This document shows, piece after piece, positions 537 to 19,407 of a stretch of 64,000 nucleotides of DNA. A program made the position numbers and the translations under genes. Origin of the DNA: Acidobacteriota bacterium. GTDB lineage: Bacteria > Acidobacteriota > Thermoanaerobaculia > Thermoanaerobaculales > Sulfomarinibacteraceae. The stretch covers positions 6,067 through 70,066 of the forward strand of contig JAHECW010000005.1 in NCBI GenBank assembly GCA_024641545.1, read 5' to 3'. Below the pieces are notes generated by a model. It was not told where the DNA came from, did no database searches, and saw nothing but the letters and a program-made list of their open reading frames with translations. How positions within the stretch are numbered: position 1 is the stretch's first letter; every line of letters begins with the position of its first letter.

Positions 537-2591
537 TCATTGGAAAAACCCTTCGGCGACAACCACGGGCCGCCCGCCGATCCCATCATCGGGCACGACC
601 TCGATCTCGGATTCGACCCCTCGGTGGCAGAAGCCACAACGGGTCATCACCGGTTCCTCGATCGCTTTCTTGGATTCGTGGGCGCAGTGGCACTCGACAC
701 AGAGCTGGTGCATGGCGAGGCGATATCCGGGAGCGATCCCGGCGATTTCGCTCCGGTCCGCTCTCTCTTCCGGGTCGCTCGCAGCGGACACACCATGGCA
801 CCCGGAACAGGCGATGTCGCCGACGGCGGCGTCGGTCGAGCACTGATGACGGCCCTCGGCGAACGCCTGCGAAATCTCGGCTCGGTGGCACTCGACGCAG
901 GGAGTCGCCGAAGCGCGGTTCTTGACGGCTTCGGTCGCCGGGTGGCAGCGTCCGCAGGAGGCATTGTTGCCGAGCGCGGTGATGTGGTCGTCGTGGATGA
1001 AGGTGTCGGTGCAACGGTACATGTCGGCGTGGCAGGTCGCACACGGCGTGCCCCGCTCAAAGCGGAGGTTGCGATGGTGACAGAGGTTGCACGAGGCCTC
1101 GCCACCGAGCCGGTCGCGGTGGGCGGTGTGGTCGAAGAGCACCGCCCGGCCCGCGCGGTCGCCGTCGATGAGCAGCGCGGTCGTGAATCCCTCGGGGAAC
1201 TGAGCGGGAGCGATCTCGTTGCCGAGGAAGAGCAGGCTCGCCGGCATCGACTCGTCCACCACGAGCCGCACCGCGGCCACCGTCCGAGCCGAACGAGTCG
1301 GCACCGCAGGGGGGTACTTACCACCGGTGGTCGTGGTCTCGAGCACGACCATGCCGACCACGATCCCGATCACCCACCCCGCCGCCGCCAGGTGGGCGCG
1401 GCCGAACCACACCCCACCGAAGTAGTTGTGGGTCAAAGGGTCGGAGATCGGCGGGGTGAAGTGATCGGGATTCGCCGGCGCCTCCTCCCAGACCGGGAAA
1501 CGCTCGACGAAGAAGAGAAAGATCAGGGCCATTCCGGAGACCAATCCGACGCTGACCAGGATCTCGGTCAGGGCCGGAAGGTAGGTTTCCCCGCCGGCCG
1601 CCAGGTGAACGATGCCGCCCACGTCCGCCCGATGGAGGACGAACCCGGCGACGCCGGTGAACGCGCCGACCACGACGGGCCAGTGTTTGTCGGACAGCGA
1701 CGGGAGGTTGAAAAGCACCAACGGAATCACCACCGACATCGCGAGCTCGAGGGCAAAGAGCACCGAGTACCACGATGGCTGTACCAGCAGGTGGAGCTGG
1801 TGGCGAAGACCGAGATCGGTCAGTCTCACCGCGAGATAGAGCAGCAGCACCACCGATGCCGCCCGGACCAGACCGCGGAGCACCGGCCATTCCCCGTGGC
1901 GGTGGTAGAGCCAGGCGGTGGTGCTGCTCTCCACCGCGACCATCATCAAACCGAGCCCGATGGCCGAGACAAAAAAGAGCAGCGGCAGGATGGGTGAATA
2001 CCAAAGCGGGTGGAGACGGTCCTTGGCGAGGAGAAAGAGCGTGCCCAGGGAACTCTGATGGAGGGTGGAAAGGCCGATACCGGCAATCACGAGCACCAGG
2101 CTGACGCGACGCATGACCCGCAGCGCCCGCTCCCACTTCAGACCTTCGAAGAGCACGGGAACGAACTCGAGGGCAAGAACCGTGAGGTAGAGCATGACGC
2201 ACCAGCCGACCTCGAAGAGCGGCGAGTCGGGTTGCCAGAAGACGATCATGCGCCAGATGTTCCACGGCCGGCCGAGGTCGACGAGGAGGCCGAGGGCGAC
2301 GGCGAGATAGCCGAGAAAGGCGGTCAACACCGCGGGCCGGACGAGGCCGTGATAACGGTCGAGGTGGAAGATGTGCACCGTTGCGGCGATCACGAACCCG
2401 CCGGCGGCCAGCGCCACTCCCGAGAGCACGTCGAACCCGATCCACAGACCCCACGGCGTCCCATCCGTGAGCGCCGTGGTGGCGCCGAGGCCGCGCAGGT
2501 AGCGCGCAACGGCCACCGCGGCGGCGATGCCGATCAAGAACCAGAGGACGGCCTTGGTCACGATGAGGCGGGTGTTGTTGGCTTCGTTCAC
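537..2591 (-). CDS. NrfD/PsrC/DsrP-like polytopic membrane subunit fused to a C-terminal heptahaem c-type cytochrome domain
   Basis: GTG start overlapping the upstream stop (GTGA). The first ~430 aa have about 10-11 hydrophobic helices in an NrfD-family pattern. The last ~250 aa are soluble and carry seven CxxCH motifs (CNLCH, CATCH, CGRCH, CVECH, CSGCH, CVECH, CGFCH). Confidence 0.85.
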   Translation of the reverse strand: MNEANNTRLIVTKAVLWFLIGIAAAVAVARYLRGLGATTALTDGTPWGLWIGFDVLSGVALAAGGFVIAATVHIFHLDRYHGLVRPAVLTAFLGYLAVALGLLVDLGRPWNIWRMIVFWQPDSPLFEVGWCVMLYLTVLALEFVPVLFEGLKWERALRVMRRVSLVLVIAGIGLSTLHQSSLGTLFLLAKDRLHPLWYSPILPLLFFVSAIGLGLMMVAVESSTTAWLYHRHGEWPVLRGLVRAASVVLLLYLAVRLTDLGLRHQLHLLVQPSWYSVLFALELAMSVVIPLVLFNLPSLSDKHWPVVVGAFTGVAGFVLHRADVGGIVHLAAGGETYLPALTEILVSVGLVSGMALIFLFFVERFPVWEEAPANPDHFTPPISDPLTHNYFGGVWFGRAHLAAAGWVIGIVVGMVVLETTTTGGKYPPAVPTRSARTVAAVRLVVDESMPASLLFLGNEIAPAQFPEGFTTALLIDGDRAGRAVLFDHTAHRDRLGGEASCNLCHHRNLRFERGTPCATCHADMYRCTDTFIHDDHITALGNNASCGRCHPATEAVKNRASATPCVECHRAEISQAFAEGRHQCSTDAAVGDIACSGCHGVSAASDPEERADRSEIAGIAPGYRLAMHQLCVECHCAHESKKAIEEPVMTRCGFCHRGVESEIEVVPDDGIGGRPVVVAEGFFQ

Positions 2592-3400
2592 GACTCCTCC
2601 TCGTTCCGTTGGACTTCGTCGCCCGGGTCGGCGGTGGCGGCGGTCGGGCCTTCGGCGGCTGCAACCTGGCGCCGCCGTTCGAGCGTCCAGTGGACGCCGT
2701 ACATGAGGCCGGCGACGCCGAAGAAGGTGTAGGGAACGGTGTGCAGGACCTTGCGGGCGAGCTCCGGACGCGATCCGGTGCCGAGATCATCGGGCCAGCG
2801 TGCGTCGGTGAGATCGACGTCCGAGATGGTCAACACCGAGGTGCCGCCGACCTCGTGCTCGCCCCAGATGTGGTCGATGTAGCGCTGTGGCGCCGCGGCG
2901 ATCCTCGAGCGTGCTTCGGCGAGCAGCGCCTCGCGATCGCCGAAGATCGTGGCCTCGGTTGGACAGGCTGCGGTGCAGGCCGGCTGTGAGAGCTCACCCG
3001 CCTTGATCTTGTCGTAACAGAGAATGCACTTGCGCACCCTCGGCGTCGCCGACTCCCACTCGTAGCGTGTCATTGCAAAAGGACAGGCCACCATGCAGTA
3101 GCGACAACCCATGCAGATCACCGGGTTGTAGGCCACCGCGCCGGCTTCGGTCCTGCTCAACGCACCCACCGGGCACGCGGCTGCGCAGGCAGGATCGAGA
3201 CAGTGGCGGCAGTGGAGACGAACGTTCCGGTTACCGGTTTCAACGAGCGTTGTCCACCGGGTGGATGACAGATCGTTGACCCCGCCCTGCCAGCGGTAGG
3301 GCGCATCCGATCCGGTGTCGTTTGTCCGCCGGCACGCGGAGACGCATTCCTCGCAGCCGATGCAGCGGGTCACGTCGGTGAGAATCGCCATGGTCGTCAT
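2588..3400 (-). CDS. 4x[4Fe-4S] ferredoxin-type electron-transfer subunit (NrfC/DmsB/PsrB/DsrO/HmcB-like)
   Basis: Cys clusters CIGCEECVSAC, CRHCLDPACAAACP, CMGCRYCMVACP and CILCYD...CTAACP. ATG overlaps the upstream stop (ATGA). No N-terminal Tat/Sec-like signal is visible. C-terminal hydrophobic helix TVPYTFFGVAGLMYGVHW. Confidence 0.85.
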   Translation of the reverse strand: MTTMAILTDVTRCIGCEECVSACRRTNDTGSDAPYRWQGGVNDLSSTRWTTLVETGNRNVRLHCRHCLDPACAAACPVGALSRTEAGAVAYNPVICMGCRYCMVACPFAMTRYEWESATPRVRKCILCYDKIKAGELSQPACTAACPTEATIFGDREALLAEARSRIAAAPQRYIDHIWGEHEVGGTSVLTISDVDLTDARWPDDLGTGSRPELARKVLHTVPYTFFGVAGLMYGVHWTLERRRQVAAAEGPTAATADPGDEVQRNEEES

Positions 3401-4098
3401 ACCGGCTCTCCCTCCTTGTTCAGGGCCTGCGCGACGTGGCGGCCGGTCTCAGCCGGGAAGTGCCATCCGAGTTGGAAGACCAGACGGGTGAACGGATAGA
3501 GGACACAGTGCGCGATCTTGGTGATCGGAACCAGCACCAATACCAGATCCCCGACAAGCACGTGCAGCAGCAGCATGGTCCGGGCGGCAAACGGGCTGAA
3601 GGCCGGATTCGCCGCCCACCAGCCGAAAAGAACGAGGGCAAACAGGATGACGAGCACGAGCACGTCCCCCGCCCGGGTGATGGCACGCGAACTCGCGGAC
3701 CCGAGCCGGCCCACGACCAGCGCGAGCAACGCCGCCAGGGAAACCAGGGTCACACCGTCGGCAACCGCCTCGGGAATGACCGGCCACCAGACCGGGAGAA
3801 TTCCGGGGAGCAACGCCGCATGCCCGGCCAGAAACAGCGGCACCACGAGCACGCCGACGTGGAAGAGCACCGACGCGGAGCTGTAGACCGGCCGCTTGTG
3901 CCACAAACGGCGGGGCACGAGCCAACCGGCAGTGGCGGCGACAATGTCGCCGAGCGGCAGCCGGCGATCGCCGGCGCGGTGCCACGCAACCGCGATCTGT
4001 CCGACCAGGGTGACGATTCTGTAGCCGAGCCCGAGAACGCACACCGTGAGAGCGATTCGAAAGAGCGGACCACGAGCAAACTCGATCCAGCCGTCCAT
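3397..4098 (-). CDS. NarI/DsrM/HmcE-like membrane cytochrome b subunit
   Basis: 233 aa with 5-6 hydrophobic helices. Conserved-looking intramembrane His residues (LFHVGVL, AGHAAL, LLLHVLVG, KIAHCVL) fit two haem b sites of the nitrate-reductase-gamma family. Sits immediately downstream of the CCG-domain gene. Confidence 0.7.
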   Translation of the reverse strand: MDGWIEFARGPLFRIALTVCVLGLGYRIVTLVGQIAVAWHRAGDRRLPLGDIVAATAGWLVPRRLWHKRPVYSSASVLFHVGVLVVPLFLAGHAALLPGILPVWWPVIPEAVADGVTLVSLAALLALVVGRLGSASSRAITRAGDVLVLVILFALVLFGWWAANPAFSPFAARTMLLLHVLVGDLVLVLVPITKIAHCVLYPFTRLVFQLGWHFPAETGRHVAQALNKEGEPV

Positions 4099-4105
4099 GA
4101 AGACC

Positions 4106-5500
4106 TCACACCTCTGACGCGGCGCCGACGGCCGCGTCGTCGATCTCGATCAGCATTTCCGCCGGCGGGACGATGGCCTTGATCAAGAGGTCGTGCAGGC
4201 CGACGACCCGGACCTGATCCAGCCCGTGGTCCTCGCAGACCTCGCGCAGCTGCTTCTTGCAGTTGGCGCACGGCGCCACGACGATCTCGGCGCCGGTGCG
4301 GCGGATCTGTTCCGCCTTCTTGGCGCCGCCCACCAGGGTTCTGAACTCGCGGATTTCGTCGATGGACACGGTGCCGCCACCGCCGCCGCAGCAGTAGTTT
4401 TCCCGACCCTTCGGGGTCATGTCGACATAGTCGGCGCAGATGTGGCGGAGGATCTCGCGCGGTTGGTCGATGATCCACCCCGTGCGGGCGATGTTGCACG
4501 GATCGTGGTACGTCGTGCGCTGGGAGACGACATCGGGCCGCAACTCGAGCCGGCCCTCCTTCCACGCCCGGTGGGTGTACTCCATGAAGTTCACCACCTC
4601 CGGGGCATCATCGGCGCCGCAGAAGGTCCGGATGAAGAACTTCGCGGACCGGGAGGCGTGGCCGCACTCCCCGATGAGGATCTTCCTCGCGCCCAGCCGG
4701 CGGACCTCCTCGGCCTCCATTGAGACGATCCGGTCGAGCATCCTGTCGGAGTAGAAAAGGCCGTAGTTGATGCCGTCGTACGCTCCCGTACCGATGGTCC
4801 ACGAACCGCCGGTGGCACTCATGACCGCCGCGTTGCCGATGAGGGTGTCGGGTTCGAGCAGATAGTCGCTCACCGCCGGGAAGAAGACATACTCGGTGCC
4901 TTCCCGGTCGATCGGGAACTCGATCTTGAGCCCGACCTCGTCGGCGCAGTCTTCTTCGAGGAACTCGCAGGTGTCGAGGAGGGCCGCCTTGGGGATCGCC
5001 GAGGTGTTGCGGGTGGTCCCGTCGAGTTGCTCCCGCGTCGCGACCACAAGAGCTTTGGGGACGATCCCCACTTCGGCGAGAGACCAACGGGCGAGGTGGG
5101 TGAGGAGCCCGTGGTCGATGCCCATGGGACACTCGAGGTTGCACCGCCGACAGGCCGTGCAGCGGTAGAACTCTTCCGCCATGGTGTTGATGTAGGCCTC
5201 ATCGATCTCGAACGATCGCCCGAACCGCGCCCCCAGGTTTCCGAACGGGGTGAAATACCGGCGATAGACCTTGAGCAGAAGCTCGGACCGGCGGCACGGG
5301 ATGTCGCGGTCCTCTCCCGATGTCTCGTAGACGGGGCAACTGGTGCTGCAGCGGCCGCACCGCGTGGTCACCCGGCAGGCGGTATCGAGCACCATCGCGT
5401 AGTTCGAGTGCGAGAGGATGGCCGCGAGGCCTTCAAGGTACCGCCTCGGCAGATCGCTGGTGTCAACGGGCTCGAGATAGTAGGAACATTCAATGGCCAT
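4106..5500 (-). CDS. DsrK/HdrD/HmcF-like Fe-S protein with CCG (cysteine-rich) domain
   Basis: Two ferredoxin motifs (CGRCSTSCP, CTACRRCNLECP). CCG-domain signature YHDPCNIAR ... NYCCGGGGG ... CANCK. Start trimmed from the track value 5713 to the ATG at 5500 (MAIECSYY...), because a -24/-12 promoter lies at 5545-5562 inside the longer ORF and a GAAGGGA RBS-like stretch precedes 5500. Confidence 0.85.
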   Translation of the reverse strand: MAIECSYYLEPVDTSDLPRRYLEGLAAILSHSNYAMVLDTACRVTTRCGRCSTSCPVYETSGEDRDIPCRRSELLLKVYRRYFTPFGNLGARFGRSFEIDEAYINTMAEEFYRCTACRRCNLECPMGIDHGLLTHLARWSLAEVGIVPKALVVATREQLDGTTRNTSAIPKAALLDTCEFLEEDCADEVGLKIEFPIDREGTEYVFFPAVSDYLLEPDTLIGNAAVMSATGGSWTIGTGAYDGINYGLFYSDRMLDRIVSMEAEEVRRLGARKILIGECGHASRSAKFFIRTFCGADDAPEVVNFMEYTHRAWKEGRLELRPDVVSQRTTYHDPCNIARTGWIIDQPREILRHICADYVDMTPKGRENYCCGGGGGTVSIDEIREFRTLVGGAKKAEQIRRTGAEIVVAPCANCKKQLREVCEDHGLDQVRVVGLHDLLIKAIVPPAEMLIEIDDAAVGAASEV

Positions 5501-5544
5501 GGGAATCCCTTCGGCGCAGCGGGCTGTCGTACCACCCATCGGTA

Positions 5545-5562
5545 GAGCATTTGTTGTGCCAA
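5545..5562 (-). promoter_or_regulatory. Sigma-54 (-24/-12) promoter of the DsrK-like/cytochrome operon
   Basis: The minus strand reads TTGGCACAACAAATGCTC. This is TGGCAC-N5-aTGC with correct GG-N10-GC spacing and one mismatch to TGGCAC-N5-TTGC. It lies ~35 nt upstream of the ATG at 5500 and faces away from a sigma-54 activator gene 145 bp away. Confidence 0.6.
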
Positions 5563-5590
5563 ACCCGAGAATTTTCATGAAACCATTTGT

Positions 5591-5603
5591 TATCAATAAT
5601 TTA
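5591..5603. promoter_or_regulatory. IHF-like bending site between the sigma-54 promoter and the divergent activator gene
   Basis: TATCAATAATTTA fits WATCAANNNNTTR. It lies in the only strongly AT-rich patch of the 5563-5706 intergenic region, ~30-40 bp upstream of the -24 element. Confidence 0.25.
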
Positions 5604-5706: not shown

Positions 5707-7044
5707 ATGACACACAGGATCGATCCCCGCTATGGCAGCCTGATCTTCGACAACATTCCGCACGGGATCTTCACCGTCGACGCCGAACGGCGAATCACCT
5801 CCTTCAACCGCGCCGCCGAGGAAATCACGGGCTGGTCCCAGGAGGAGGCTCTCGGTCGTCCGTGCACGTCGATCTTCAACTCCAACCACTGCGCCGGCCG
5901 CTGCTTCCTCTTCAACAGCATCGAGCGCGGCGAGCCCCACCGCGACTGCGAGGTCCACATCATCAAGCGAAACGGCACCGAGATCTCGGTCGCGGTGAGC
6001 ACCGCGAGCCTGACGAGTGATGACGGCGAGGTCATCGGCGGGATCGAAATGTTCCGCGACCTCACCGAGGTCAATACCCTCCGGCGGGAACTCGAGGGGT
6101 CCTACCAGATCGGCGATATCGTCTCCAAGAGCGCCGCCATGAAGGGTGTCCGCGATCTCCTTCCGCTCGTTGCCCGCAGCGACAGCACCGTGCTCATCGA
6201 AGGCGAGCCCGGCACCGGCAAAGAACTGGTTGCACGAGCAATCCACAACATGGGTCCCAGGCGGGAGGGCCCGTTTGTCGGGGTCAACTGCGGCGCCCTG
6301 CCGGAATCGCTCGTCGAGTCCGAGCTCTTCGGCCACGTCCGCGGCGCTTTCACCGACGCAAAAAGGGACAAGCCCGGCCGTTTCGCCGCCGCCCAGGGGG
6401 GAACCCTCCTCCTCGACGAGATCGGCGACATCTCGGCCGCGGTGCAGGTCAAACTCCTTCGGGTGCTCCAGGAACGCGAGTACGTGCCTCTCGGATCCTC
6501 GGAGCCCGTCAAGGCCGATGTCAGGATTCTCGCCGCCACCAACCGTGATCTGTCACACGAGGCGATGAACGGCCGCTTCCGCCAGGATCTCTATTTTCGC
6601 CTCAACGTGGTTCGGATCGTGCTGCCGCCGCTGCGTTCCCGGTGGGAGGACATCCCGCTCCTGGTGCAACACTTCATCGAGCGCTTCAACAACCTCCAGG
6701 GGCGCCGGATCTGCGGCATCTCCGAACGCGCCATGACAACCCTCGCGGGTCACTCCTTCCCGGGCAACGTACGCGAACTCGAAAACGCCATCGAACACGC
6801 TTTCGTGGTGTGCGCCGGCAACACCATACGCCGCGAAGATCTGCCGCCGCACATCCGCGGCGAGGCCGCCGTCCCGCCGGAGGCATCCCGGGAATCTGCC
6901 GGCGGTCCGCTCGACGCGGCCGAGGCCGCGGCCATTCGTGACGCTCTCAGGCGCTATTCCAACAACCGAACCGAGACCGCCCGGGGACTGGGCATCTCGC
7001 GGAATACGCTTTGGCGGAAGATGAAGAAATACCGGATACCATGA
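5707..7044 (+). CDS. Sigma-54-dependent transcriptional activator (PAS - AAA+ - Fis-type HTH; no receiver domain)
   Basis: N-terminal PAS (IPHGIFTVDAERRITSFNRAAEEITGW). Walker A GEPGTGKE, GAFTDA loop, LLLDEIGD, PGNVRELEN. C-terminal HTH ETARGLGISRNTLWRKMKKY. Confidence 0.9.
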   Translation: MTHRIDPRYGSLIFDNIPHGIFTVDAERRITSFNRAAEEITGWSQEEALGRPCTSIFNSNHCAGRCFLFNSIERGEPHRDCEVHIIKRNGTEISVAVSTASLTSDDGEVIGGIEMFRDLTEVNTLRRELEGSYQIGDIVSKSAAMKGVRDLLPLVARSDSTVLIEGEPGTGKELVARAIHNMGPRREGPFVGVNCGALPESLVESELFGHVRGAFTDAKRDKPGRFAAAQGGTLLLDEIGDISAAVQVKLLRVLQEREYVPLGSSEPVKADVRILAATNRDLSHEAMNGRFRQDLYFRLNVVRIVLPPLRSRWEDIPLLVQHFIERFNNLQGRRICGISERAMTTLAGHSFPGNVRELENAIEHAFVVCAGNTIRREDLPPHIRGEAAVPPEASRESAGGPLDAAEAAAIRDALRRYSNNRTETARGLGISRNTLWRKMKKYRIP

Positions 7045-7149: not shown

Positions 7150-7177
7150 GCTGCTGTTCTGATTCGATCGTTCGGGC

Positions 7178-8782
7178 CTAGTGCCATTCCCAATCGATAA
7201 ATCCCGGCTTGACGTCGACCATGGCGTTGACGATGAGCTCCACCAGACCGCCGTAGTAGATCCCGGCCTTCTCGAATGCATCGTAGTAGGTGATGATGTC
7301 GCGGATCTGGCCCTTGCAGTTGGAGCACGGCGCGCAGACGTACTTCATGTGCGACGGATCCATGGACTCGTCCTGGAAGGCATTGAGGATCTGGCGGAAT
7401 TTCCGCCGCCCGGTCATCCGATGGCGCCAATCCTTGAAATTGTGGCCCGACATGATGGCGAAGCCCGAACCGCCGCCGCAGCAGTAGTTCTCGACCCCGT
7501 GCGGCGCCATTTCGCGGAAGCGGCCCTCGGGCACCACCGCGTCGATGATCTCGCGCTGCGGCGAGACGATGCCCATGAGGCGCACCAGGTTGCACGGATC
7601 ATGCAGGGTCACCGGGAAGTCGTTGCGGCTCTTGTCGAGCTTGAGCACACCCGATCGGATGATATCGCGCAGGGTCACCATGGAGCTCTCGCGCGGGATG
7701 TTGAGGTCGCCGGTGAGCACCTTGTCGGCGATGACCGTGAGGGCTTTGTGGGCGTGGCCGCACTCACCGAGGACGATCTTTCTGACTCCGAGTTTCTTGG
7801 CGATGGCGGCGTGCCGCACCGCGACCCGCGCGAACTGGACGTCGTCGTACCAGACCCCGTAGTTGATCCCGTCGTAGCCGATGGCATCGGACGACAGGGT
7901 CCAGCTGAGGCCGGCCGCTTCGAAGACCGTGGCGAAGGCGCCGGGGTTCTCGGGCCAGGCCATGATCTCACCGGCATTGTGGATGAGGAGGATGTCGGCG
8001 CCGACCTTGTCGAACGGCGTCTCGATGGTGATGCCGGTGCGCTCCGCGGTGTCTTCGTCGATGAACTCGATGTTGTCCTTGACGATCATCGGGGTCATAC
8101 CGGTGGATGAACCGACCCTGAGCTGAAGCACGGACCCGTCGTCGTGGATCTCCTTGGGAACGATCCCCATCTCCATGCTCGCGATCTTCCGGATCTCGCG
8201 CGACAGCAGCGCGTTGTCGGCGCCGATGGGACAGGTCTGGGCGCAGCGGCGGCAGAGGTTGCAGCGGTAGCTCAACTCGATGAGCCGGGCCACCGTCTCC
8301 CAGTTGAGATCGATGTCGCCGTGCAGCGAAGGCGAGGCCTTCTTGACGTACTTGAAGTAGATCCGGCGCAGGATTTCGGAACGATAGACGGGTCGGTAGA
8401 GTTCGTTCTCACCGCTTTCCTGGAAGATCGGGCAGGCGTCGGAGCAGGTGTGGCACTTGGCGCAGTGCTCCATCGACATCTCGAAGGGCTGGAGGAACGT
8501 CCAGTTGTCGTCGACGCTGAAGAGCTTCTCGAGACCGCTGAGGAAGCCGTTGACCAGCTTGTCTTCCTCTTCCTTGGTCTTCGGTTTCTCGATATTGACC
8601 GCGATGGTGTCGTCGAGAACGACGTACTTTTCGCGGGCGGCGTCGGAGAGCTGGGCGAACTCGGGCTCTTCGTCGATCTTGTCAAAGGGGGGCGGCAACG
8701 GGATCTGTTCGTACTGGTTGATCTGGGCGAGGGGTTCGCCCGGATTCTTCCCCATGTCCTTGACGCTGTTGGGCTGTTTCAT
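7178..8782 (-). CDS. Second DsrK/HdrD-like Fe-S protein with CCG domain
   Basis: CAKCHTCSDACP and CNLCRRCAQTCP ferredoxin motifs. LHDPCNLVR ... NYCCGGGSG ... CAPCSNCK CCG signature. ATG overlaps the upstream stop (ATGA). Confidence 0.85.
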   Translation of the reverse strand: MKQPNSVKDMGKNPGEPLAQINQYEQIPLPPPFDKIDEEPEFAQLSDAAREKYVVLDDTIAVNIEKPKTKEEEDKLVNGFLSGLEKLFSVDDNWTFLQPFEMSMEHCAKCHTCSDACPIFQESGENELYRPVYRSEILRRIYFKYVKKASPSLHGDIDLNWETVARLIELSYRCNLCRRCAQTCPIGADNALLSREIRKIASMEMGIVPKEIHDDGSVLQLRVGSSTGMTPMIVKDNIEFIDEDTAERTGITIETPFDKVGADILLIHNAGEIMAWPENPGAFATVFEAAGLSWTLSSDAIGYDGINYGVWYDDVQFARVAVRHAAIAKKLGVRKIVLGECGHAHKALTVIADKVLTGDLNIPRESSMVTLRDIIRSGVLKLDKSRNDFPVTLHDPCNLVRLMGIVSPQREIIDAVVPEGRFREMAPHGVENYCCGGGSGFAIMSGHNFKDWRHRMTGRRKFRQILNAFQDESMDPSHMKYVCAPCSNCKGQIRDIITYYDAFEKAGIYYGGLVELIVNAMVDVKPGFIDWEWH

Positions 8783-10240: not shown

Positions 10241-10268
10241 CGCATCCCTTCGGACTGACAGGGATGCG
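10241..10268 (-). terminator. Hairpin just downstream of the histidine-kinase stop
   Basis: CGCATCCCT-(10 nt)-AGGGATGCG, a 9-bp stem, 14 nt after the stop at 10282. No clear T-run follows, so intrinsic-terminator function is uncertain. Confidence 0.3.
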
Positions 10269-10281
10269 ACACCGAAGGGGA

Positions 10282-12138: not shown

Positions 12139-12260
12139 CCACTCCGAACCGCGGAGGTTCCGGCCCGGGACCGGCGGCGTCTGTCCATCAACGCGTTCAT
12201 GTCAACAACTCGACAATACCCGAGACCCACTCGATGCAACAAGCGCTGCCGAACTTCATC

Positions 12261-13895
12261 TCATCCGCAGGAGCCGGTGGGACAACCCCGACCGGAGAGG
12301 TGGGCTTCATATTCTTTCCGGAAATTGCCCAGGCCGGTGATGACGGAACCGGTGGCATTGCGACCGAGTTCGCACAGGGACGTCTGTCGAATGTGCCGGC
12401 AGAGCCGTTCCAGACGCTTCAGGTCGGACGCCTCTGCCTGACCCGAACCGATGCGATCGAGGAGATTGAGGACCACCCTGGTCCCGATCCGGCAGGGCGG
12501 ACACGTCCCGCACGACTCTTCGGCGCAGAAGGCAACAAAATAGCGAGCGAGAGCCACCGGACAGCTGCCCGGGCCGAGCACCACGACGCTCCCCGAACCG
12601 AGATTGGCCTCGTGGTTGCGGAGCGACCCGAAATCAACGGTGGTGTCGAACTGGGAGCGAGACAGGGTCACACCACCGGGACCCCCGAGGTGGGCTCCCA
12701 GAACCCCGTCGTCGGCGCCCGCGCCGGCGATCTCCTCAACGATCCTGGCAAGGCTCGTCCCGATCGGCACCTCGGCCACCCCGGGTCTGGGGACGGCGCC
12801 CGACACGCTGACCACCTTGGTGCCGGACGGACGGACATCGGCGCCGAGCCGCTCGGGCAGCACGATCAACGGGATGTTGGCCAGCGTCTCGAGACCGTTG
12901 ATCAAGGTCGGGCAACCCCACAGGCCGCTGACCGCCGGGAACGGCGGACGGGGCCTGGCGACCGCGCGACGCCCCTGGAGCGCGTTGAGCAACGAGGTTT
13001 CCTCGCCACCCATGGACGCCCCGGCGTTCTCGCAGATCTCGATCGAGAAATCGAACCCCGAACCGAGAATCCTCGAACCGAGAAAACCCCGATTCCGAGC
13101 CTGCTCTACGGCCCGCTCGGCGCGGGCGACGGCCAGGCGGTGCTCCGATCGGAGAAACAGCCGACCCTCCCTGGCGCCCACCGCATAGCCCGCGATGGCC
13201 ATCCCTTCGACAACACTGTGCGGGTCTCCTTCGACGAGGGTGCGATCCGCGGTCGGTCCCGGGTCGCCCCCTTCGCCGTTGCCGACGACATATCGGATCT
13301 GTCCCGGCGTGTCGGCGACCAGCGCCCACTTCAACCCGACGGGGAACCCCGCCCCGCTCCGTTCCTGGAGACCGGATCGCTTGACCAGATCGATGATCTT
13401 CACCGGATCGAGATCGAGGAGCGATCGCCGCAGCGCATCATAGGCACCGAGCGTAACCGCGTGTTCCACATCCTCGGGATCGACGACGCCGCACCGGGCC
13501 AGCACCTGACGATCCTGGTTCGCGAAGAACGGATTGTCCGCCAGTCCCCGGTATCGCTGACCGCTCGCGGGTTCGAGATACAGCAATCGGTCGATGACCT
13601 CGGATCGACCGACCGTGCGATCGAGGATCTCGTCCACATCCTCCTGCCTGACCCGACAGTAGAGCACGTCCAGTCCTGGAAGGTGGACCAGCGGACCCTG
13701 ACTGCAGAACCCACGGCACCCGACCACGCACGGCTTCGACTCGATCGTGACCTTTGATCCGGAGCCGGCCGCGCCCCCTTGCAGCGCTTCAATCACCTCG
13801 AGGGCACCGAGGGCGATGCAGCCGCTGCCGCCGCAGACACGAATCGCCACCGGAGTCCGGTCCGGAGCCTGCGAGGCGGTCGTCGGCGCCGTCAA
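12261..13895 (-). CDS. NuoF/HoxF/HndC-like NADH-binding FMN/Fe-S subunit with N-terminal thioredoxin-like [2Fe-2S] domain
   Basis: RVCGGSGC...CRGFCSQGP (2Fe-2S), GAGFPVGLKW (NADH site), GGEETSLLNAL (FMN site), ESCGTCPPCRIG (N3 cluster). Start trimmed from 14015 to the TTG at 13895. That TTG overlaps the NuoE-like stop (TTGA) and follows GGAGGA at a 6-nt spacing. A GTG at 13850 is an alternative. Confidence 0.85.
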   Translation of the reverse strand: MTAPTTASQAPDRTPVAIRVCGGSGCIALGALEVIEALQGGAAGSGSKVTIESKPCVVGCRGFCSQGPLVHLPGLDVLYCRVRQEDVDEILDRTVGRSEVIDRLLYLEPASGQRYRGLADNPFFANQDRQVLARCGVVDPEDVEHAVTLGAYDALRRSLLDLDPVKIIDLVKRSGLQERSGAGFPVGLKWALVADTPGQIRYVVGNGEGGDPGPTADRTLVEGDPHSVVEGMAIAGYAVGAREGRLFLRSEHRLAVARAERAVEQARNRGFLGSRILGSGFDFSIEICENAGASMGGEETSLLNALQGRRAVARPRPPFPAVSGLWGCPTLINGLETLANIPLIVLPERLGADVRPSGTKVVSVSGAVPRPGVAEVPIGTSLARIVEEIAGAGADDGVLGAHLGGPGGVTLSRSQFDTTVDFGSLRNHEANLGSGSVVVLGPGSCPVALARYFVAFCAEESCGTCPPCRIGTRVVLNLLDRIGSGQAEASDLKRLERLCRHIRQTSLCELGRNATGSVITGLGNFRKEYEAHLSGRGCPTGSCG

Positions 13896-14449
13896 CGCCG
13901 GTCCTCCGGCCGACGATCGGGGCCGAGGAGCTCGGTCACGAGATCGCCGGCGGCGGCTTCTGTCTCCACGCCGCGAACCCGGTCCTCGATCCGAATCACC
14001 GGCGCGAGGCCGCACACGGCGAGACAGCGCTCCTGGCGCACGGCGAGGGTCGGCTCGCCGGCGATCGGCGGCCGTTCAGCCACCGCTCGGTTGATCCGGC
14101 GCAGCACCCCTTCCCCTCCACACAGGAAACAGCCGGGTCCGGTGCAGACATCGACGATGAGCCGGCCGCGCCGCTCGGAACTGAGTTGCGGGTAGTAGCT
14201 CACAACCCCGGCAACCTGGGCGGGTGAGAGGCCGAACCGGTCCGCCACCAACTCCTGCACTCTCCACGAGACCCTGTCAAAGACCTGCTGGAGACCCAAG
14301 AGCACTCGAATCAGCCCCTCCCGTCCGCCGGGCGCCTGCGCCAGCAACTCGTCGACCAACTCGATCACCGCCGGATCGAGGGCCTCCGCACCATCGCCGC
14401 CTTCGGTGCCGAAGAAACCGGAGTCGGTGATGTCGTCGGTAATGCTCAT
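13892..14449 (-). CDS. NuoE-like thioredoxin-fold [2Fe-2S] subunit
   Basis: VVSYYPQL...VDVCTGPGCFLCGG...CLAVCGLAPV signature. The ATG at 14449 (MSITDD...) lies 2 nt after the upstream stop; the track start at 14476 is a GTG inside the upstream gene. Confidence 0.8.
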   Translation of the reverse strand: MSITDDITDSGFFGTEGGDGAEALDPAVIELVDELLAQAPGGREGLIRVLLGLQQVFDRVSWRVQELVADRFGLSPAQVAGVVSYYPQLSSERRGRLIVDVCTGPGCFLCGGEGVLRRINRAVAERPPIAGEPTLAVRQERCLAVCGLAPVIRIEDRVRGVETEAAAGDLVTELLGPDRRPEDRR

Positions 14450-14451
14450 CG

Positions 14452-16962
14452 TCAGGCCTTTCTCACCTTGACCCACAGGACCTCGCCGCCCTCTTCAAAG
14501 AGGGTCGAAGCTCCATAGCGGCTTCCAACCCAGGGGACGATTACGGTTCCCTGGAGAACCGTTCGATCGAGCCGGGCACGCAGCAGAACCTCTCCCTTGT
14601 CGCTCGACACCGCGACGACTTCACCGCGAGCCACGCCGAGGGCGCGCGCATCGGCCGGGTTGATCCGAACCGCCACCGTCGGCGACAGTTCCTGGAGCAG
14701 CGCGCTGCGCATGGTGACCGAGCCCGAGTGAAAGAGCTGCGGCGCGGCATCGAGCAGAAAACCCGATGCGCCGGCCGCCGCGCGGGGTGGTGAAACCGGA
14801 GTCAGCCGCCGGGGCTGAGATCGTCGCCACCTCCATCCCACCACCCGATCCAGCTCGCGGAAGAGGGCTTCGCCCGTCGGGAGCGACGAGCCCATCCGGC
14901 GTGCGAGTTCGACCAGGATCACCGTATCCGACCTGACTCCGGCAGGGGGACCGAGCGCTCGCCGCAACGGCCGTCGAATACCGTCGGCGCCCACCGTCGT
15001 TCCTTCGCGTTCGCTGAGAATGGCCGCCGGAAGGACCACGTCCGCTCGTTCGGCGGTGCTCGTTCGAAACGCATCGACGACAACCGAGAAACCCGCACCC
15101 TCCACGACCCGCCGAGGATCTTCGCCGCGCGGAAGCAGGTCGATGGGATCAACGCCGACGAGAAGGAGACCCGATGCGGCGTCGGGACCGGCCTTGACCC
15201 AGTCCGAGACCGACCAACCCGCCTCCGAGATGGTCGCGCGCCCGGTGAGATCCTCGAGCTCGACCGCCTGGTTGATGAGCCGATGGCCGGGCAGGAGACG
15301 CGGGTGGAGGCCGACATCGACCAGCCCCTGGACATTGGACCGACCGCCCAGAACGAGCAAACCCGCATCGCTTCCGCACAACGCCGTCAGTGTCGCGGCC
15401 ACCCGCGCCACCGCCGCCTCGTTCCCGGGCACACCGGAGCCGGTCCCCATGATCATCACCGGCCGGCGTGCGGCCGCCAACCGGGAGGCCAGACCGTCAA
15501 TCCGCTCAGCCGTGAGCCCGGTCGCCCGGGCGACCGATTCCGGCGAGAACGCCTCGATGGATCGACGCCAGGCGTCATACCCCGGCAGGTGTTCGATCCT
15601 CCTCGAACGAGGGCCATCGAGAGCCAACAACCGGACCGCCACGGCAACCAGGAGATCGCTGACCGACCCGGGGGCCGGCCGAAGCACATCGGCCGCGTGC
15701 CGATCGAGGCCGCCCGCAACCGGGCTTACCGCGATCACCGGCACCCCCCGTTGGACCGCCGCCTGCACCAGTTCGGTCTTGACCAGCGGGTGACCCCGAC
15801 TCGGATCACTCCCGAAGACCAGTACGAGATCCGCCAGCCTGATCTCGTCAAAACCCGCAGTCGAACGCGGTCGGTCGAAGACCTCCCAGACCCCGTCCAC
15901 CAGCGCCGGCGCTCCGCCGACCGGCGCCATGTCGACGTGCGGACTCTTGAGCACCTCGCGGGCCAGCGCCTGCAGGAGGTAGCCGTCCTCACAGCTCAGC
16001 CGGCCGCCCCCGGCCACCATCACCGGGCCGCGTCCCGCGGCACGTCGAAGGCCGTCCGCCGCCGACGCCAGGCCTTCCTCCCAGCTCACCTCGACCAGCG
16101 TTCCGTCCTTGCGGACCAACGGCGCTCTCAGGCGTTCGGGGTTCGCCACGACATCGAGACCGAGCCACCCCTTGACGCAGAGCTTGCCGCGATTGGGTGA
16201 ACCACCGACCGCTGAGGTCACGCGTTGGAGCCGGCCTTGGTGGTTCTCCACCGACACCTCGCAACCGCAGCAACAGAAGGAGCAGGTGGTCTTGACCCGC
16301 GCTCGTTGCCAGACCGGGATCGGCGACGCGTACGGCTGCGCCACCAGGGCCCCCACCGGACACGCATTGACGCACTGGCCGCAGAACTCGCAGTCCAGCG
16401 GCCGGTCGAGAAAGGTCGCAACGTGGGTTCCCATACCCCGCCCCAGAAAAGCCAGGGCCGCGACCCCCTGAACCTCCTCACACAGGCGGACGCAGCGACC
16501 GCAGACAATGCACTTCCCAGGGTCGCGAATGATCACCGGGGAGGCTTCGTCTCGCGACGCCGGTTTGAAGTCGAACGGCAGAATGTCGTCCGGGATCCCG
16601 ATCTCGTGGACCAGATCCTGGAGGCGGCAGTCCGCGTTGCGTTCGCAGACCGGGCACTCCATTCGATGATTGAGCACGAGCAACTGGAGTTGCTGTTGCC
16701 GGGCTTCGACCACCGCCGGGCTGTCGGTCAGGATGACCATCCCGTCCTGGATCCGCGTCGAGCACGCCGGGACCAGGGCCCCCGAGGCGTCCGCCCGCTC
16801 GACCACACACATCCTGCAGCCGCCGTACGGCGTCAAACGATCATCGTGGCACAGGGTCGGCAGCCGGATTCCGAGTTCCGAGAGCACGTGGATGAGCAAC
16901 CGGTGCCTGGCCGTTCGCACCGGCCGCCCATCGACCGTGAGGGATACGGGTAGGGTTTCCAT
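14452..16962 (-). CDS. NuoG-like Fe-S / molybdopterin-oxidoreductase-fold subunit (apparently non-catalytic MopB domain)
   Basis: N-terminal 2Fe-2S (LCHDDRLTPYGGCRMCVVE). CPVCERNADCRLQD and CIVCGRCVRLCEE...CEFCGQCVNACP clusters. MopB cluster CSFCCCGC...LCVKG. The region aligned to the formate-dehydrogenase active site reads LKSPHVDMAPVGGAP, with no Cys or in-frame TGA. Confidence 0.8.
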   Translation of the reverse strand: METLPVSLTVDGRPVRTARHRLLIHVLSELGIRLPTLCHDDRLTPYGGCRMCVVERADASGALVPACSTRIQDGMVILTDSPAVVEARQQQLQLLVLNHRMECPVCERNADCRLQDLVHEIGIPDDILPFDFKPASRDEASPVIIRDPGKCIVCGRCVRLCEEVQGVAALAFLGRGMGTHVATFLDRPLDCEFCGQCVNACPVGALVAQPYASPIPVWQRARVKTTCSFCCCGCEVSVENHQGRLQRVTSAVGGSPNRGKLCVKGWLGLDVVANPERLRAPLVRKDGTLVEVSWEEGLASAADGLRRAAGRGPVMVAGGGRLSCEDGYLLQALAREVLKSPHVDMAPVGGAPALVDGVWEVFDRPRSTAGFDEIRLADLVLVFGSDPSRGHPLVKTELVQAAVQRGVPVIAVSPVAGGLDRHAADVLRPAPGSVSDLLVAVAVRLLALDGPRSRRIEHLPGYDAWRRSIEAFSPESVARATGLTAERIDGLASRLAAARRPVMIMGTGSGVPGNEAAVARVAATLTALCGSDAGLLVLGGRSNVQGLVDVGLHPRLLPGHRLINQAVELEDLTGRATISEAGWSVSDWVKAGPDAASGLLLVGVDPIDLLPRGEDPRRVVEGAGFSVVVDAFRTSTAERADVVLPAAILSEREGTTVGADGIRRPLRRALGPPAGVRSDTVILVELARRMGSSLPTGEALFRELDRVVGWRWRRSQPRRLTPVSPPRAAAGASGFLLDAAPQLFHSGSVTMRSALLQELSPTVAVRINPADARALGVARGEVVAVSSDKGEVLLRARLDRTVLQGTVIVPWVGSRYGASTLFEEGGEVLWVKVRKA

Positions 16963-16969
16963 CCCGCCC

Positions 16970-19204
16970 TTACTCCGGCGCCGGAGGAGCCAACCGGCGG
17001 ATGGACCACTTTGATCTGAGTCGGTTGGCGAGCCGCATGACGATGCCGGGTTCGGGGTCGAGGGCGTGTTCGACCGAACTCGGCATCATCAGCAAATCGA
17101 GAAGGTGGATCGTCTCGCGGCCGGCGTCACGCAGCGCGCTTCGGCAGCCGATGCAGTAGGTCACCATGGGCAACCGGGTCTGGCCGGACGCGCGGGCGGC
17201 GATCTTCGAGAAGAGCTCCGGATCGACATTTTCGATCTTGCCGCCCGAACCGCAACACCTGGTCCGCTCGTGCGAGTATTCGGTCTCGACCACCTCGGCG
17301 CCGCTGGTTCTGACCAGGGTTCGGATCGCCGCATGGACCTCGGGATTGTGCCGGCTCCGACACGGGTCGTGAACCGCGAACCGTAGATCATCGTATCGCT
17401 GGATCGGGTCCCAGGTCTCCGCCAGCACCTCCCAAACCGAGCTCACCTGAACTTGTGGAAACCACTCGGTCAGCATCTCCTGACACTGGGGACAGGCAGC
17501 GATGAGCTCCTCGGCACCGAGGTCATCCATGGCAGCGGCAATGTGCTCCCGCGCCCGCGCACCTTCTGCTTCCAAACCGAGAATCTCGGCGGGCACGCCG
17601 CAGCAGTACATCAGAACGCCGATCCTCGGATCCTGGCGCAGGAGGTGTTCATAAAGTACCCGGGTCTGTTTCGGCGAGGTGGCGGGCAGCTCGCACCCGG
17701 TGAAGAAGAGACGCCGGGCACGGCGACGGCCGGGCGCGGCGGCCGCGAGCGAAAAGGTGTTCGACAGCCCGGCCCGGAGTTCACGCTGAACCTGGCGGTG
17801 CTCCGGGAGCGGCGCCAACCCCTCGCGAACCGCCTCCCGGCGCGCCGCGAGCATGAGCTCACCGGTATCCAACCCGACCGGACACAAAGTGGCGCAGAGA
17901 CCGCAGATGTTGCACGAGTAGATCGTCTCCACGTGGTCATCGATACCCGCGGCCACCCGCCGAGCCAGATCGCGCGGCGAGTTGCAGTGGCGGGCGAGAA
18001 ACTCGCAGTCGCGAACACAACGATCGCAGGTGCAATCGAGGCAGCGTTCACCTTCGCCGCGAACCTCCCTCTCGGTCATCGGCGGCGCTGCCGGCTGTAG
18101 GAGCAACGGCGTTCGCTGACGGCGGCGGCGCTCGCTCTCATCGATGCCGAGCTTCCAAAGGAGCGGCGGCGGCTGCGTCGCCGAACCCGGATATTCCAAC
18201 GCTTCACCGTCGATGAAACGACGCGCTGATTCGGCCGCCCGCCGACCGTGGGCCATCGCGTCGATGACCGACGTCGGCCCACTGATGGCGTCGCCGGCGG
18301 CGAAAAGCCCCTCCTCACCGGTTTCGCAGGTCACCGGATCGGCCTTGATGGTGTCCCGAGCGCTGGCCTCGACGGCCCCGGCGCCCGATCGCAGGAGTTC
18401 CTGCCCGCCGGCGAACCCCAGCGTCAAGAGCACCACGTCGTGGCGAGCCCGAAGCTCGGCCAGGCTGAGGTCCCTTCCCAGTTGGACGCCCGTTCGGACA
18501 TCGATCTCGAGCGCCGCGATGATGGAGAGGTCGCGCGCACGTACCCTTGCAGGGAGCCGCCACTGAGGTATCCGGGTGGCCAGGCAACCACCGAGCTGCG
18601 GCTCCCGGTCGAAGATCGACACCTGGAATCCGGCACGCCGGAGATCGTGGGCGGCCATCAATCCCGCGGGGCCGGCGCCGACCACGGCGGCGCGCTGCGA
18701 ACGAGACCCGGCCATGGTCAGGATGTGCTCGGGCTCGCCCTCCTCCGACTCGGCCAGGAAACGCTTGATGTCACGGATCCTGATGGCCCGGTCGAGTTCG
18801 AGTCGCTTGCAGTGAAGCTCACACGGCTGGGTGCAGACGTAGCCGAGGATTCCGGGGAAGGGCAGCTTTTCGCGAACGGTCTGCAGCGCTTCGCGAAATC
18901 TCCCGGCGCGGGCAAGCTGGACATAGAGATGGGCGTCGACCCGGATCGGGCACCGTGCCTCACAGTTGGCTGGACCTTCGCCACGACAGCGGTCGAGCAT
19001 TCTGCCGGCGAGCTCGATCACCCGCGTGCGCATGGCGGTGGGCGAGTCGGACCCGGATCCGCCCGGGCTGGTGCCGCGAACGCCGTACCCGTCACCGGCG
19101 CGTAACATGACCTGCACCATCGGTGTTACCCAACCGACGCGACAAACGGGCGACGGAGAGCGGAGAGGCGCAGCCGCCCGGTACGGTTTCCCATGCCAAA
19201 GCAC
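16970..19204 (-). CDS. Fusion protein: GltD-type N-terminal Fe-S domain + FAD-binding fold + HdrD/GlpC-like 2x[4Fe-4S] + two CCG domains
   Basis: CEARCP...YVCTQPCELHCKR (GltD/DPD domain-II-like). VVGAGPAGLMAAHDL...GGCL and FAAGDA (FAD). CLDCTCDRCVRDCEF and CNICGLCATLCPVG. CCG motifs FFTGCE...MYCCGVPAE and VHDPCRSRH...RCCGSGGK...YCIGC. The true start is uncertain: 19204 is GTG, and ATG candidates lie at 19120, 19108 and 19033. Confidence 0.75.
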   Translation of the reverse strand: MLWHGKPYRAAAPLRSPSPVCRVGWVTPMVQVMLRAGDGYGVRGTSPGGSGSDSPTAMRTRVIELAGRMLDRCRGEGPANCEARCPIRVDAHLYVQLARAGRFREALQTVREKLPFPGILGYVCTQPCELHCKRLELDRAIRIRDIKRFLAESEEGEPEHILTMAGSRSQRAAVVGAGPAGLMAAHDLRRAGFQVSIFDREPQLGGCLATRIPQWRLPARVRARDLSIIAALEIDVRTGVQLGRDLSLAELRARHDVVLLTLGFAGGQELLRSGAGAVEASARDTIKADPVTCETGEEGLFAAGDAISGPTSVIDAMAHGRRAAESARRFIDGEALEYPGSATQPPPLLWKLGIDESERRRRQRTPLLLQPAAPPMTEREVRGEGERCLDCTCDRCVRDCEFLARHCNSPRDLARRVAAGIDDHVETIYSCNICGLCATLCPVGLDTGELMLAARREAVREGLAPLPEHRQVQRELRAGLSNTFSLAAAAPGRRRARRLFFTGCELPATSPKQTRVLYEHLLRQDPRIGVLMYCCGVPAEILGLEAEGARAREHIAAAMDDLGAEELIAACPQCQEMLTEWFPQVQVSSVWEVLAETWDPIQRYDDLRFAVHDPCRSRHNPEVHAAIRTLVRTSGAEVVETEYSHERTRCCGSGGKIENVDPELFSKIAARASGQTRLPMVTYCIGCRSALRDAGRETIHLLDLLMMPSSVEHALDPEPGIVMRLANRLRSKWSIRRLAPPAPE

Positions 19205-19361
19205 GGCATCCGCCGGCCGGGACCAGGGCTCGAATCAGCCGAAACGGTCCACGGCAGCGGCCGGTTTGCCGGTTGAGGTCACGAGTCGTTGGCCGAGGTC
19301 CGGCGCGACAAGCCCCGCGGGAGGTCCATCCAGGCACACCTCACCTCTCGGGCGAAAACGC

Positions 19362-19378
19362 TGCAAGTTGTGTGCCGA
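19362..19378 (-). promoter_or_regulatory. Sigma-54 (-24/-12) promoter upstream of the NuoEFG-like / CCG-fusion operon
   Basis: The minus strand reads TCGGCACACAACTTGCA. This is cGGCAC-N5-TTGCA with exact spacing and one mismatch to consensus. It lies in the gap between the DsbA-like stop (19408) and the fusion gene. Confidence 0.55.
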
Positions 19379-19407
19379 CGAAGTTTGTCGAGCCCGACGG
19401 CGGAGGG

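Follow-up and report, generated by a model that had tools for sequence, protein, structure and literature searches.

The FlxABCD–HdrABC complex of sulfate reducers is a proposed NADH:DsrC/ferredoxin oxidoreductase, and the Hmc (HmcABCDEF) and Nhc/Tmc complexes of Desulfovibrio bring together a periplasmic multihaem cytochrome c, a 4×[4Fe-4S] protein, an NrfD-type protein, a cytochrome b and a cytoplasmic CCG protein. Sulfate and sulfite reducers also possess stand-alone DsrMK paralogs (Pereira et al. 2011, as cited in PMC6018796; DsrM-1-type complexes in bioRxiv 10.64898/2026.08.25.746951), and dsrM2 and dsrK2 paralogs near dsrAB have already been named in acidobacterial and other sulfate reducers (PMC6018796). 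Here we describe a redox locus at positions 537–19380 of a 64,000-nucleotide stretch of Acidobacteriota bacterium DNA (contig JAHECW010000005.1; hereafter the window), whose modules a, b and c each include a CCG-domain protein: the DsrK-like K1, the HdrD-type DsrK2 (K2) and a DsrL-like::HdrD fusion, respectively. The region is probably the left two-thirds of an approximately 30-kb dsr neighbourhood in a Thermoanaerobaculales-type acidobacterial metagenome-assembled genome (MAG), in which these CCG proteins would re-reduce DsrC from three electron pools. A relative, Ca. Sulfomarinibacter, has a full Sat/Apr/Qmo/Dsr pathway (PMC8528874).

The dsr genes themselves lie on a near-identical contig, L089 (JGI contig Ga0484983_0000008; other loci are likewise cited by L number), which was reached through cluster member P0241 of the NrfD::cytochrome protein of module a. 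Bases 1–12,591 of L089 are collinear with window positions 12591 to 1 at 98.7% identity, and past window position 1 the contig continues with the rest of a PAS kinase, two receivers, dsrA, dsrB, a DsrD-like gene, a gene that we call p147, a DsrL-like gene and a DsrN-like gene. dsrA begins 2.9 kb past the window edge, at a distance of 3.4 kb from the final gene of module a. Both reductase genes exceed their family cut-offs (dsrA, TIGR02064, 557 bits against 393; dsrB, TIGR02066, 517 bits against 341). The DsrL-like gene encodes a GltD-type protein of 580 residues and the DsrN-like gene is of the CobB type, while the DsrD-like gene, of 76 residues, follows dsrB and is called from position and size, with no Pfam hit.

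Because dsrAB starts 2.9 kb past position 1 in a near-identical contig, the apparent lack of a substrate pathway is an effect of the window edge. Gene identities were taken from a list of open reading frames (ORFs) with a codon-position guanine-plus-cytosine (GC) filter, followed by Pfam and NCBIfam scans; the 40 window ORFs scanned cover the region and the stretch beyond it at about 19–51 kb, where the genes, among them recA, ligA, cca, lon, nrdR and gdh, have housekeeping or regulatory roles. These 40 ORFs include no gene for DsrAB, DsrC, Apr, Sat, Qmo or a hydrogenase and no formate dehydrogenase active site, so that the first-pass annotation, which saw no substrate pathway, was right for the scanned ORFs and wrong for the locus. 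It had gone on to read the three modules as a self-contained circuit between NADH, a soluble disulfide carrier and quinone or haems, unrelated to Dsr and working on a novel carrier. The window shows no carrier gene, and K1, K2 and the fusion all fall outside named families by HMM (profile hidden Markov model) cut-offs, as such a circuit would have it, but canonical dsrA and dsrB directly follow the module a regulators in L089, module b is dsr-linked across phyla, and the inheritance of module a is separate from that of modules b and c; we therefore consider the proposal highly improbable. Its functional core survives, in that the CCG proteins are still best read, in functional terms, as serving a thiol/disulfide carrier that connects NADH with quinone and periplasmic haems.

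Taken together, the window and L089 give the gene order fusion and NuoG/E/F-like genes (module c), receiver, kinase, dsrM2K2 (module b), divergent σ54 activator, K1, cytochrome b, Fe-S protein and NrfD::heptahaem (module a), PAS kinase, two receivers, dsrA, dsrB, dsrD-like, p147, dsrL-like and dsrN-like, with the last six genes, from dsrA to dsrN-like, just outside the window. The features within the window are as follows.

19362–19377, minus strand: σ54 −24/−12 element CGGCACACAACTTGCA upstream of the module c fusion, one mismatch.
16970–19120, minus strand: module c fusion with a GltD/DsrL-like N-terminus, an HdrC-like 2×[4Fe-4S] part and an HdrB-like part (Pfam Fer4_20, FAD, Fer4_17 and two CCG).
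14452–16962, minus strand: NuoG/FdsA-like protein with 2Fe-2S, several 4Fe-4S and a molybdopterin fold lacking the catalytic residues (Pfam).
13892–14476, minus strand: NuoE/HoxE-like [2Fe-2S] thioredoxin-like protein (Pfam 2Fe-2S_thioredx, 3.8e-22; NCBIfam HoxE/NuoE below cut-off).
12261–13850, minus strand: NuoF-like protein, binding flavin mononucleotide (FMN) and NADH, with an N-terminal 2Fe-2S domain (Pfam Complex1_51K, NADH_4Fe-4S; 529 residues by the L089 gene call).
11740–12138, minus strand: stand-alone receiver (Pfam Response_reg), found after module c in every sampled relative that has module c.
10282–11736, minus strand: histidine kinase, a PilS-like sensor with six transmembrane (TM) helices (Pfam HisKA, HATPase_c, 6TM_PilS), which travels with module c.
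8779–9714, minus strand: DsrM2 (M2), NarI-type membrane cytochrome b (Pfam Nitrate_red_gam; NCBIfam DsrM weak, 20.6 bits against a cut-off of 300).
7178–8782, minus strand: DsrK2 (K2), HdrD-type protein (Pfam Fer4_8 and CCG) with one CCG motif, GECGH and C-x-x-C.
5707–7044, plus strand: PAS-σ54 enhancer-binding protein with HTH_8 (Pfam), divergent from module a and in the same place in L085, L088, L092 and L093.
5546–5561, minus strand: σ54 −24/−12 element TGGCACAACAAATGCT upstream of K1, one mismatch.
4106–5500, minus strand: K1, DsrK-like cytoplasmic CCG protein (Pfam Fer4_8 and CCG) with one CCG motif, GECGH and C-x-x-C.
3397–4098, minus strand: M1, HmcE/TmcC-like membrane cytochrome b (HmcE 113.6 bits, cut-off 275; TmcC 107.2 bits; both below cut-off; no Pfam match).
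2588–3400, minus strand: HmcB/HybA-like 4×[4Fe-4S] protein (Pfam Fer4_11; HmcB 224 bits against a cut-off of 420).
537–2591, minus strand: HmcC/HybB-type NrfD protein with an extra TM helix and a C-terminal heptahaem cytochrome c3-like domain (Pfam NrfD, Cytochrom_CIII).
2–442, minus strand: PAS ORF, the N-terminus of the 602-residue PAS-PAS-PAS histidine kinase of the module a cassette (Pfam PAS; L089 gene table), leaving the window.

The Pfam and NCBIfam scans bear out the first-pass count of three CCG-domain proteins in three modules. The island is not confined to one strand as had been stated, since the PAS-σ54 activator at 5707–7044 is on the plus strand and divergent from module a. Of the regulators said to be interleaved with the modules, the σ54 activator, the histidine kinase and the receiver are there, and the separate PAS sensor is not, the PAS ORF at 2–442 being the start of the kinase that leaves the window.

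From these identities and from synteny we infer a scheme, including its substrate, its direction of electron flow and any bifurcation, in which DsrC is the most likely shared substrate of the CCG proteins. DsrAB would reduce sulfite on the carrier protein DsrC, and oxidised DsrC, as a trisulfide or disulfide, would be re-reduced at the non-cubane [4Fe-4S] clusters of the CCG proteins, fed by three pools. In module b, menaquinol would be oxidised at the NarI-type dihaem cytochrome b and the electrons passed to K2. Module c would act as a soluble NADH-dependent reductase, in which NADH is oxidised at the NuoF-like FMN and electrons run through the NuoE/NuoG-like Fe-S chain and the Fe-S and flavin adenine dinucleotide (FAD) domain of the fusion to its HdrB-like pair of CCG clusters, making the module a counterpart of Flx-Hdr in function, with other components. 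Module a would be an Hmc-like transmembrane conduit that connects the periplasmic heptahaem domain, the Fe-S subunit and the NrfD quinone site, via cytochrome b, to K1, and it would sit as an independently regulated cassette (PAS-σ54 activator, PAS kinase and receivers) between dsrM2K2 and dsrAB.

Module b is the already described dsrM2K2 paralog pair. It shares with stand-alone DsrMK the NarI-type cytochrome b and a single-CCG HdrD-type protein with GECGH, has no J, O or P, and, as in the definition of dsrM2K2 (PMC6018796), is a DsrMK-like pair without JOP that lies beside dsrAB or dsrMKJOP. The link to dsr genes spans phyla. M2 is always paired with K2, and the pair is 67–77% identical across MAGs labelled Planctomycetota, Myxococcota, Gemmatimonadota, Fibrobacterota and others. 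K2 is unusually conserved, at 67–95% identity across many phyla; its counterparts in MAGs that bear the label Acidobacteriota or Thermoanaerobaculales, and in one with the label Methylomirabilota, are 91–95% identical, and those in Ca. Sulfomarinibacteraceae 87–88%. In L042, where five Dsr HMMs score well above their cut-offs, the genes dsrT, dsrM, dsrK, dsrJ, dsrO, dsrP, a CoA-disulfide-reductase-like gene and cysG are directly followed by M2K2; this order returns in nine further loci (L038, L040, L043, L052, L053, L055–57 and L063), two of which (L040 and L063) have a bona fide DsrC, with the C-terminus ...GPAKGACKVAGLPKPTGCV, as the first gene of the cluster. In L011, L025 and L026, M2K2 instead lies 2–3.5 kb upstream of dsrAB.

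K1 and K2 fall outside the canonical DsrK clade by HMM, tree and motifs. On the NCBIfam DsrK profile (NF045796, cut-off 400) K2 scores 330 bits and K1 273 bits (K1 on HmcF, 197 against 750), whereas the canonical DsrK of L042 scores 741 bits. In a neighbour-joining tree of the CCG proteins, built without bootstrap support or HmcF, TmcB or HdrD references from cultured organisms, K2 forms its own clade and K1 a separate clade nearest canonical DsrK. The canonical references are loci whose genes exceed the NCBIfam cut-offs (L042 and L063) and not a solved structure; a sequence search of the PDB with K2 found no solved DsrK. A. fulgidus DsrK has a conserved non-ligating Cys329 with a nearby His331, and Asp500 replaces a supernumerary Cys ligand (bioRxiv 10.64898/2026.08.25.746951). 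The GECGH (Cys-x-His) motif is present in K1, K2 and the canonical DsrK of L042 and L063, while the canonical proteins read C-A-I-D where K1 has C-A-N-C and K2 has C-S-N-C, so that K2 differs from canonical DsrK in C-x-x-C against C-x-x-D; this column probably corresponds to Asp500 of A. fulgidus DsrK. The partners differ as well: K2 is accompanied by M only, K1 by M and by proteins of the HmcB type and the HmcC-type::cytochrome kind, and neither has DsrJ, DsrO or DsrP. The first-pass annotation had set its modules against a genome with dsrAB and dsrC and with each module in an ordinary clade; dsrAB turns out to be present, K1 and K2 lie outside the canonical DsrK clade, and module c belongs to no named complex.

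Other genes accompany dsrM2K2 in relatives. In several phyla the CoA-disulfide-reductase-like flavoprotein, of about 560–580 residues (L042:5370–7115, with equivalents in L043, L052, L053 and L055–57), is encoded between dsrP and cysG; it is a candidate NADH-dependent persulfide reductase (Npsr). A third DsrK/HmcF-like type of CCG protein with a fused C-terminal receiver (DVU0259-type) is found at L045:5326–7089, with equivalents in L037, L041, L046, L050, L056, L061 and L076; its gene is accompanied by those for an HmcE-like cytochrome b, a PAS kinase and a receiver, and often lies a few kb from dsrM2K2 in Gemmatimonadota-, Planctomycetota- and Myxococcota-labelled MAGs, and a phospho-receiver on a CCG enzyme is unusual. 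The p147 gene (L089:18070–18513, between the dsrD-like and dsrL-like genes) encodes a conserved protein of about 147 residues that has no Pfam or NCBIfam match, carries ExxH-like motifs and may be ferritin-like. Homologues occur at L025:17763–18182, L026:9240–9659 and L042:11696–12118 (minus strand), and in L036, L043, L046, L049, L052, L055, L057, L063 and L065. The gene lies within the acidobacterial dsrAB operon and, in distant phyla, 0.1–4 kb downstream of dsrK2, usually directly adjoining it, and it is a candidate for an unnamed dsr-associated gene.

Module c matches no named complex; like module a, it is an uncharacterised version of a modular redox complex of known kind. Module c shares with Flx-Hdr the proposed role, NADH-driven disulfide reduction at HdrB-type CCG clusters, but HdrA, MvhD/FlxD and the Flx subunits were not found by Pfam or NCBIfam in any gene of the region; instead, NADH would be taken up by a NuoEFG/FdsGBA-type module, and FAD would be bound in a GltD/DsrL-type domain fused to HdrCB. 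The NuoE-, NuoF- and NuoG-like trio is shared with FdsGBA, and the pairing of this trio with a GltD-like flavoprotein resembles that in StnABC/NfnABC (Sporomusa-type Nfn; PMC7483475, PMC9304861), although the GltD-like part in module c lacks its NAD(P)H domain and carries an HdrD module. Our literature searches for a GltD-HdrD plus NuoEFG complex gave nothing specific.

The fusion, which starts at either 19120 (716 residues) or 19033 (687 residues) and has cluster members of both lengths, carries two complete CCG motifs. It aligns to the DsrL of L089 over DsrL residues 33–244 and 422–460, and DsrL 245–421 has no counterpart; the alignment indicates that the NAD(P)H-binding Rossmann subdomain, present in DsrL and GltD, is deleted from between the halves of the FAD domain. 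Since the fusion lacks this subdomain, NADH would have to enter at the NuoF-like FMN site. Near full-length, the fusion also matches NF045663 (505.8 bits, cut-off 530; residues 70–735 on profile positions 9–661), a curated family named 'pyridine nucleotide-disulfide oxidoreductase/dicluster-binding protein' that has no assigned function.

The best solved relative of the NuoG-like protein is FdsA (6tg9, 282 bits), and in the alignment to 6tg9 the molybdenum active-site residues of FdsA are replaced, Cys386-His387 by Gly-Gly and Arg587 by Gly. A role as formate dehydrogenase was rejected on the loss of these residues, in agreement with the first-pass statement that no formate dehydrogenase active site is present, and the protein is best described, from its residues, as an electron-transfer scaffold. 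The NuoF-like protein stops at CPTGSCG (a CPxGxC motif in the alignment with L091), whereas homologues of 636–637 residues (42% identity) run on into a 2×[4Fe-4S] region; BfuB-like homologues with C-terminal Fer4 domains are found in L081, L090 and L091. BfuB of the HydABC-type Bfu has two C-terminal [4Fe-4S] clusters, which the window protein lacks, and this lineage appears to have lost them. The C-terminus of the NuoF-like protein lies at 12261–12280 (minus strand) and is followed by a 122-bp gap (12139–12260).

Modules c and b are syntenic in all four distant relatives sampled. The block of fusion, NuoG, NuoE, NuoF, receiver, 6-TM kinase, (rhodanese, VTT), M2 and K2 is kept at 51–55% identity, also where the upstream flank is a different one, and synteny supports the c–b association as the one link between modules. 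In Ca. Sulfomarinibacteraceae, module c is absent, and so are the kinase and receiver. Directly upstream of module c, the window has a DsbA/Thioredoxin_4-family protein of about 380 residues (19408–20560, minus strand) and then recA (20619–21746, minus strand); the order recA, (ADH), Trx4, module c is kept in L081–L084 and L090 and not in L091. The module c 5′ leader contains no counterpart of an 85-residue ORF of L081. Between the kinase and M2 the window has a 560-bp non-coding stretch of lower GC content (9715–10281), at the place where relatives at 51–55% identity encode a 323-residue rhodanese and a VTT-domain membrane protein; tblastn found no remnants of either between the window kinase and M2.

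That rhodanese gene, together with the DsrL-type gene in the adjacent dsr operon and the published view that either direction could be open to acidobacterial dsr sets (PMC6018796, PMC8528874), would suit a different reading of modules c and b, namely a sulfur-oxidising or disproportionating unit in which the CCG sites oxidise persulfide or sulfur bound to DsrC and deliver the electrons to menaquinone (b) and NAD+ (c). We regard this as improbable, as NAD+ reduction by thiol oxidation is thermodynamically uphill without coupling, dsrEFH was not seen in any of the loci, and a DsrD-like gene after dsrB is typical of reductive-type clusters, though this gene is identified by position and size and has no Pfam match. 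A more specific proposal, speculative and rather unlikely in our estimate, is that module c, dsrM2K2 and the rhodanese of relatives make up an undescribed NADH-dependent Hdr-type reductase of Acidobacteriota, with a formate-dehydrogenase-derived NADH module on a DsrL-like::HdrD fusion that has an FAD unable to bind NAD(P)H, and that it may bifurcate or confurcate between NADH, ferredoxin and a pool of DsrC (or another persulfide carrier) in the homologues with BfuB-type clusters and would replace Flx-Hdr in these phyla.

Module a has the same set of components as Hmc and Nhc/Tmc, and three of its subunits have HmcB, HmcC and HmcE as best NCBIfam matches, all below cut-off. It differs from Hmc in several respects: where Hmc has a separate 16-haem HmcA, module a has seven haems fused to the NrfD C-terminus via an extra TM helix; it lacks HmcD; its gene order is reversed (F-E-B-C::A); its Fe-S subunit has no signal peptide; its CCG subunit is nearer DsrK than HmcF; and it is served by σ54 and two-component regulators of its own. 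The NrfD::cytochrome protein (HmcC 294 bits, cut-off 550) has seven CxxCH motifs in its C-terminal third, and the fusion is common, with nearly all of the best 120 matching 90%-identity clusters, at 49–100% identity, sharing the architecture. Judged by eye with the positive-inside rule, the predicted topology places the NrfD part N-in with ten helices and, after an eleventh helix, the haem domain in the periplasm. The HmcB alignment of the Fe-S subunit begins at profile position 36, and DsrO scores only 88 bits; the protein has a C-terminal TM anchor and neither a twin-arginine (Tat) nor a general secretory (Sec) signal peptide at its N-terminus, an upstream extension of the ORF is impossible, and the homologues in L085, L088, L092 and L093 are of the same length.

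The complete module a cassette, consisting of the divergent PAS-σ54 activator, K1, M1, the Fe-S protein, NrfD::cytochrome, PAS kinase and receivers, recurs at 51–60% identity in four unrelated contigs (L085, L088, L092 and L093) with different neighbours each time, and it lies about 7 kb from dsrM2K2 in the Anaeromyxobacter MAG L063, which also has canonical dsrMKJOP. The position of module a is taken by an aquaporin and a transporter in L025. In close relatives (L003, at 11946–19044; L004–L009, L021–L023, L028 and L032) a hybrid cluster of TmcD-TmcC-TmcB with a shortened HmcA-like protein, HmcB and HmcC occupies its place downstream of dsrM2K2, and in L003 the TmcD and TmcC frames seem to be fused or frameshifted. 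The Hmc-like complex of module a is therefore autonomous and under regulation of its own, and its place in the dsr neighbourhood is lineage-specific. The first-pass reading of the three modules as one unit does not hold: c and b are stable neighbours, and module a is found alone elsewhere.

Several observations weigh against DsrC re-reduction by all three modules. Neither dsrC nor canonical dsrMKJOP is seen in the window or the next 9.5 kb (L089), and a scan of all frames of the whole window and L089 found no DsrC C-terminal motif; DsrC is for this reason an assumed and not an observed carrier in this genome. With DsrK scores under the cut-off and with Cys at the Asp500-equivalent column, K1 and K2 may have a chemistry other than trisulfide reduction. 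The dsrL-like gene fits a reductive, an oxidative and a disproportionating direction of flow alike. The Fe-S subunit of module a lacks a Tat signal, and the cassette offers no Tat-bearing or obvious export partner. Finally, there is no dsr gene within 10 kb of the module a cassette in L085, L088, L092 or L093, and because the cassette occurs in this way in four other genomes, the link between module a and Dsr is specific to this lineage.

This last point supports the alternative that module a is unrelated to Dsr and stands beside dsrAB incidentally. It would then encode an autonomous inner-membrane complex under redox sensing, with the quinone pool or cytoplasm at one end of its electron path and acceptors in the periplasm or outside the cell at the other, like complexes of the Geobacter Cbc type or the Nhc/Qrc type. 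The Tmc/Hmc-type cluster that L003 and L004 carry in place of module a is in keeping with it, and σ54-dependent quinone:cytochrome complexes do occur in Geobacter. We nevertheless consider this alternative unlikely, although of appreciable weight: a simple quinol:cytochrome oxidoreductase would have no use for the cytochrome b and the DsrK-like CCG subunit in the cytoplasm that module a retains; module a lies within 7 kb of dsrM2K2 in two phyla (the window lineage and Anaeromyxobacter L063); and the absence of dsr genes around the four other cassettes refers to 10-kb neighbourhoods and not to whole genomes.

The regulatory sequences distinguish the modules further. A scan of the 64 kb with the pattern TGGCAC-N5-TTGC returned only two sites with one mismatch, those upstream of K1 and of the module c fusion, both intergenic and correctly oriented, with a total count no different from chance. 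Both are conserved: the GG-N10-GC core of the K1 element is invariant in five lineages, where the intergenic region is otherwise 56% identical, and an element matching that of module c is also found upstream of the fusion gene in L004, L081, L090 and L091 (five lineages with the window). A divergent enhancer-binding protein accompanies the conserved element of module a; the conserved element of module c has no such protein adjacent to it. The window scan found no σ54 site before module b, and relatives have one before M2. The σ54 wiring proposed at first pass is upheld for modules a and c by these two conserved sites, and is dropped for module b in the window. The PAS domains of the σ54 activator (window 5707–6100, plus strand; ...RPCTSIFNSNHCAGRC...) and of the module a kinase (L001:18295–20262; ...CYSLTKKRDEPCDDCH... 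and ...CYRLFKRRGEPCPDC...) are Cys-rich, which suggests a metal, Fe-S or haem redox-sensing site.

Thermoanaerobaculia-type Acidobacteriota are abundant in sediments and implicated in sulfur cycling. What seemed to be an orphan redox island arose from where the window was cut, and the locus is an extended sulfur-respiration locus. It offers two candidate electron-input complexes into DsrAB/DsrC that are unlike the Desulfovibrio paradigm, a conserved NADH-linked Hdr-like enzyme syntenic with dsrM2K2 and a σ54-switched mini-Hmc cassette, both of which are biochemically testable.

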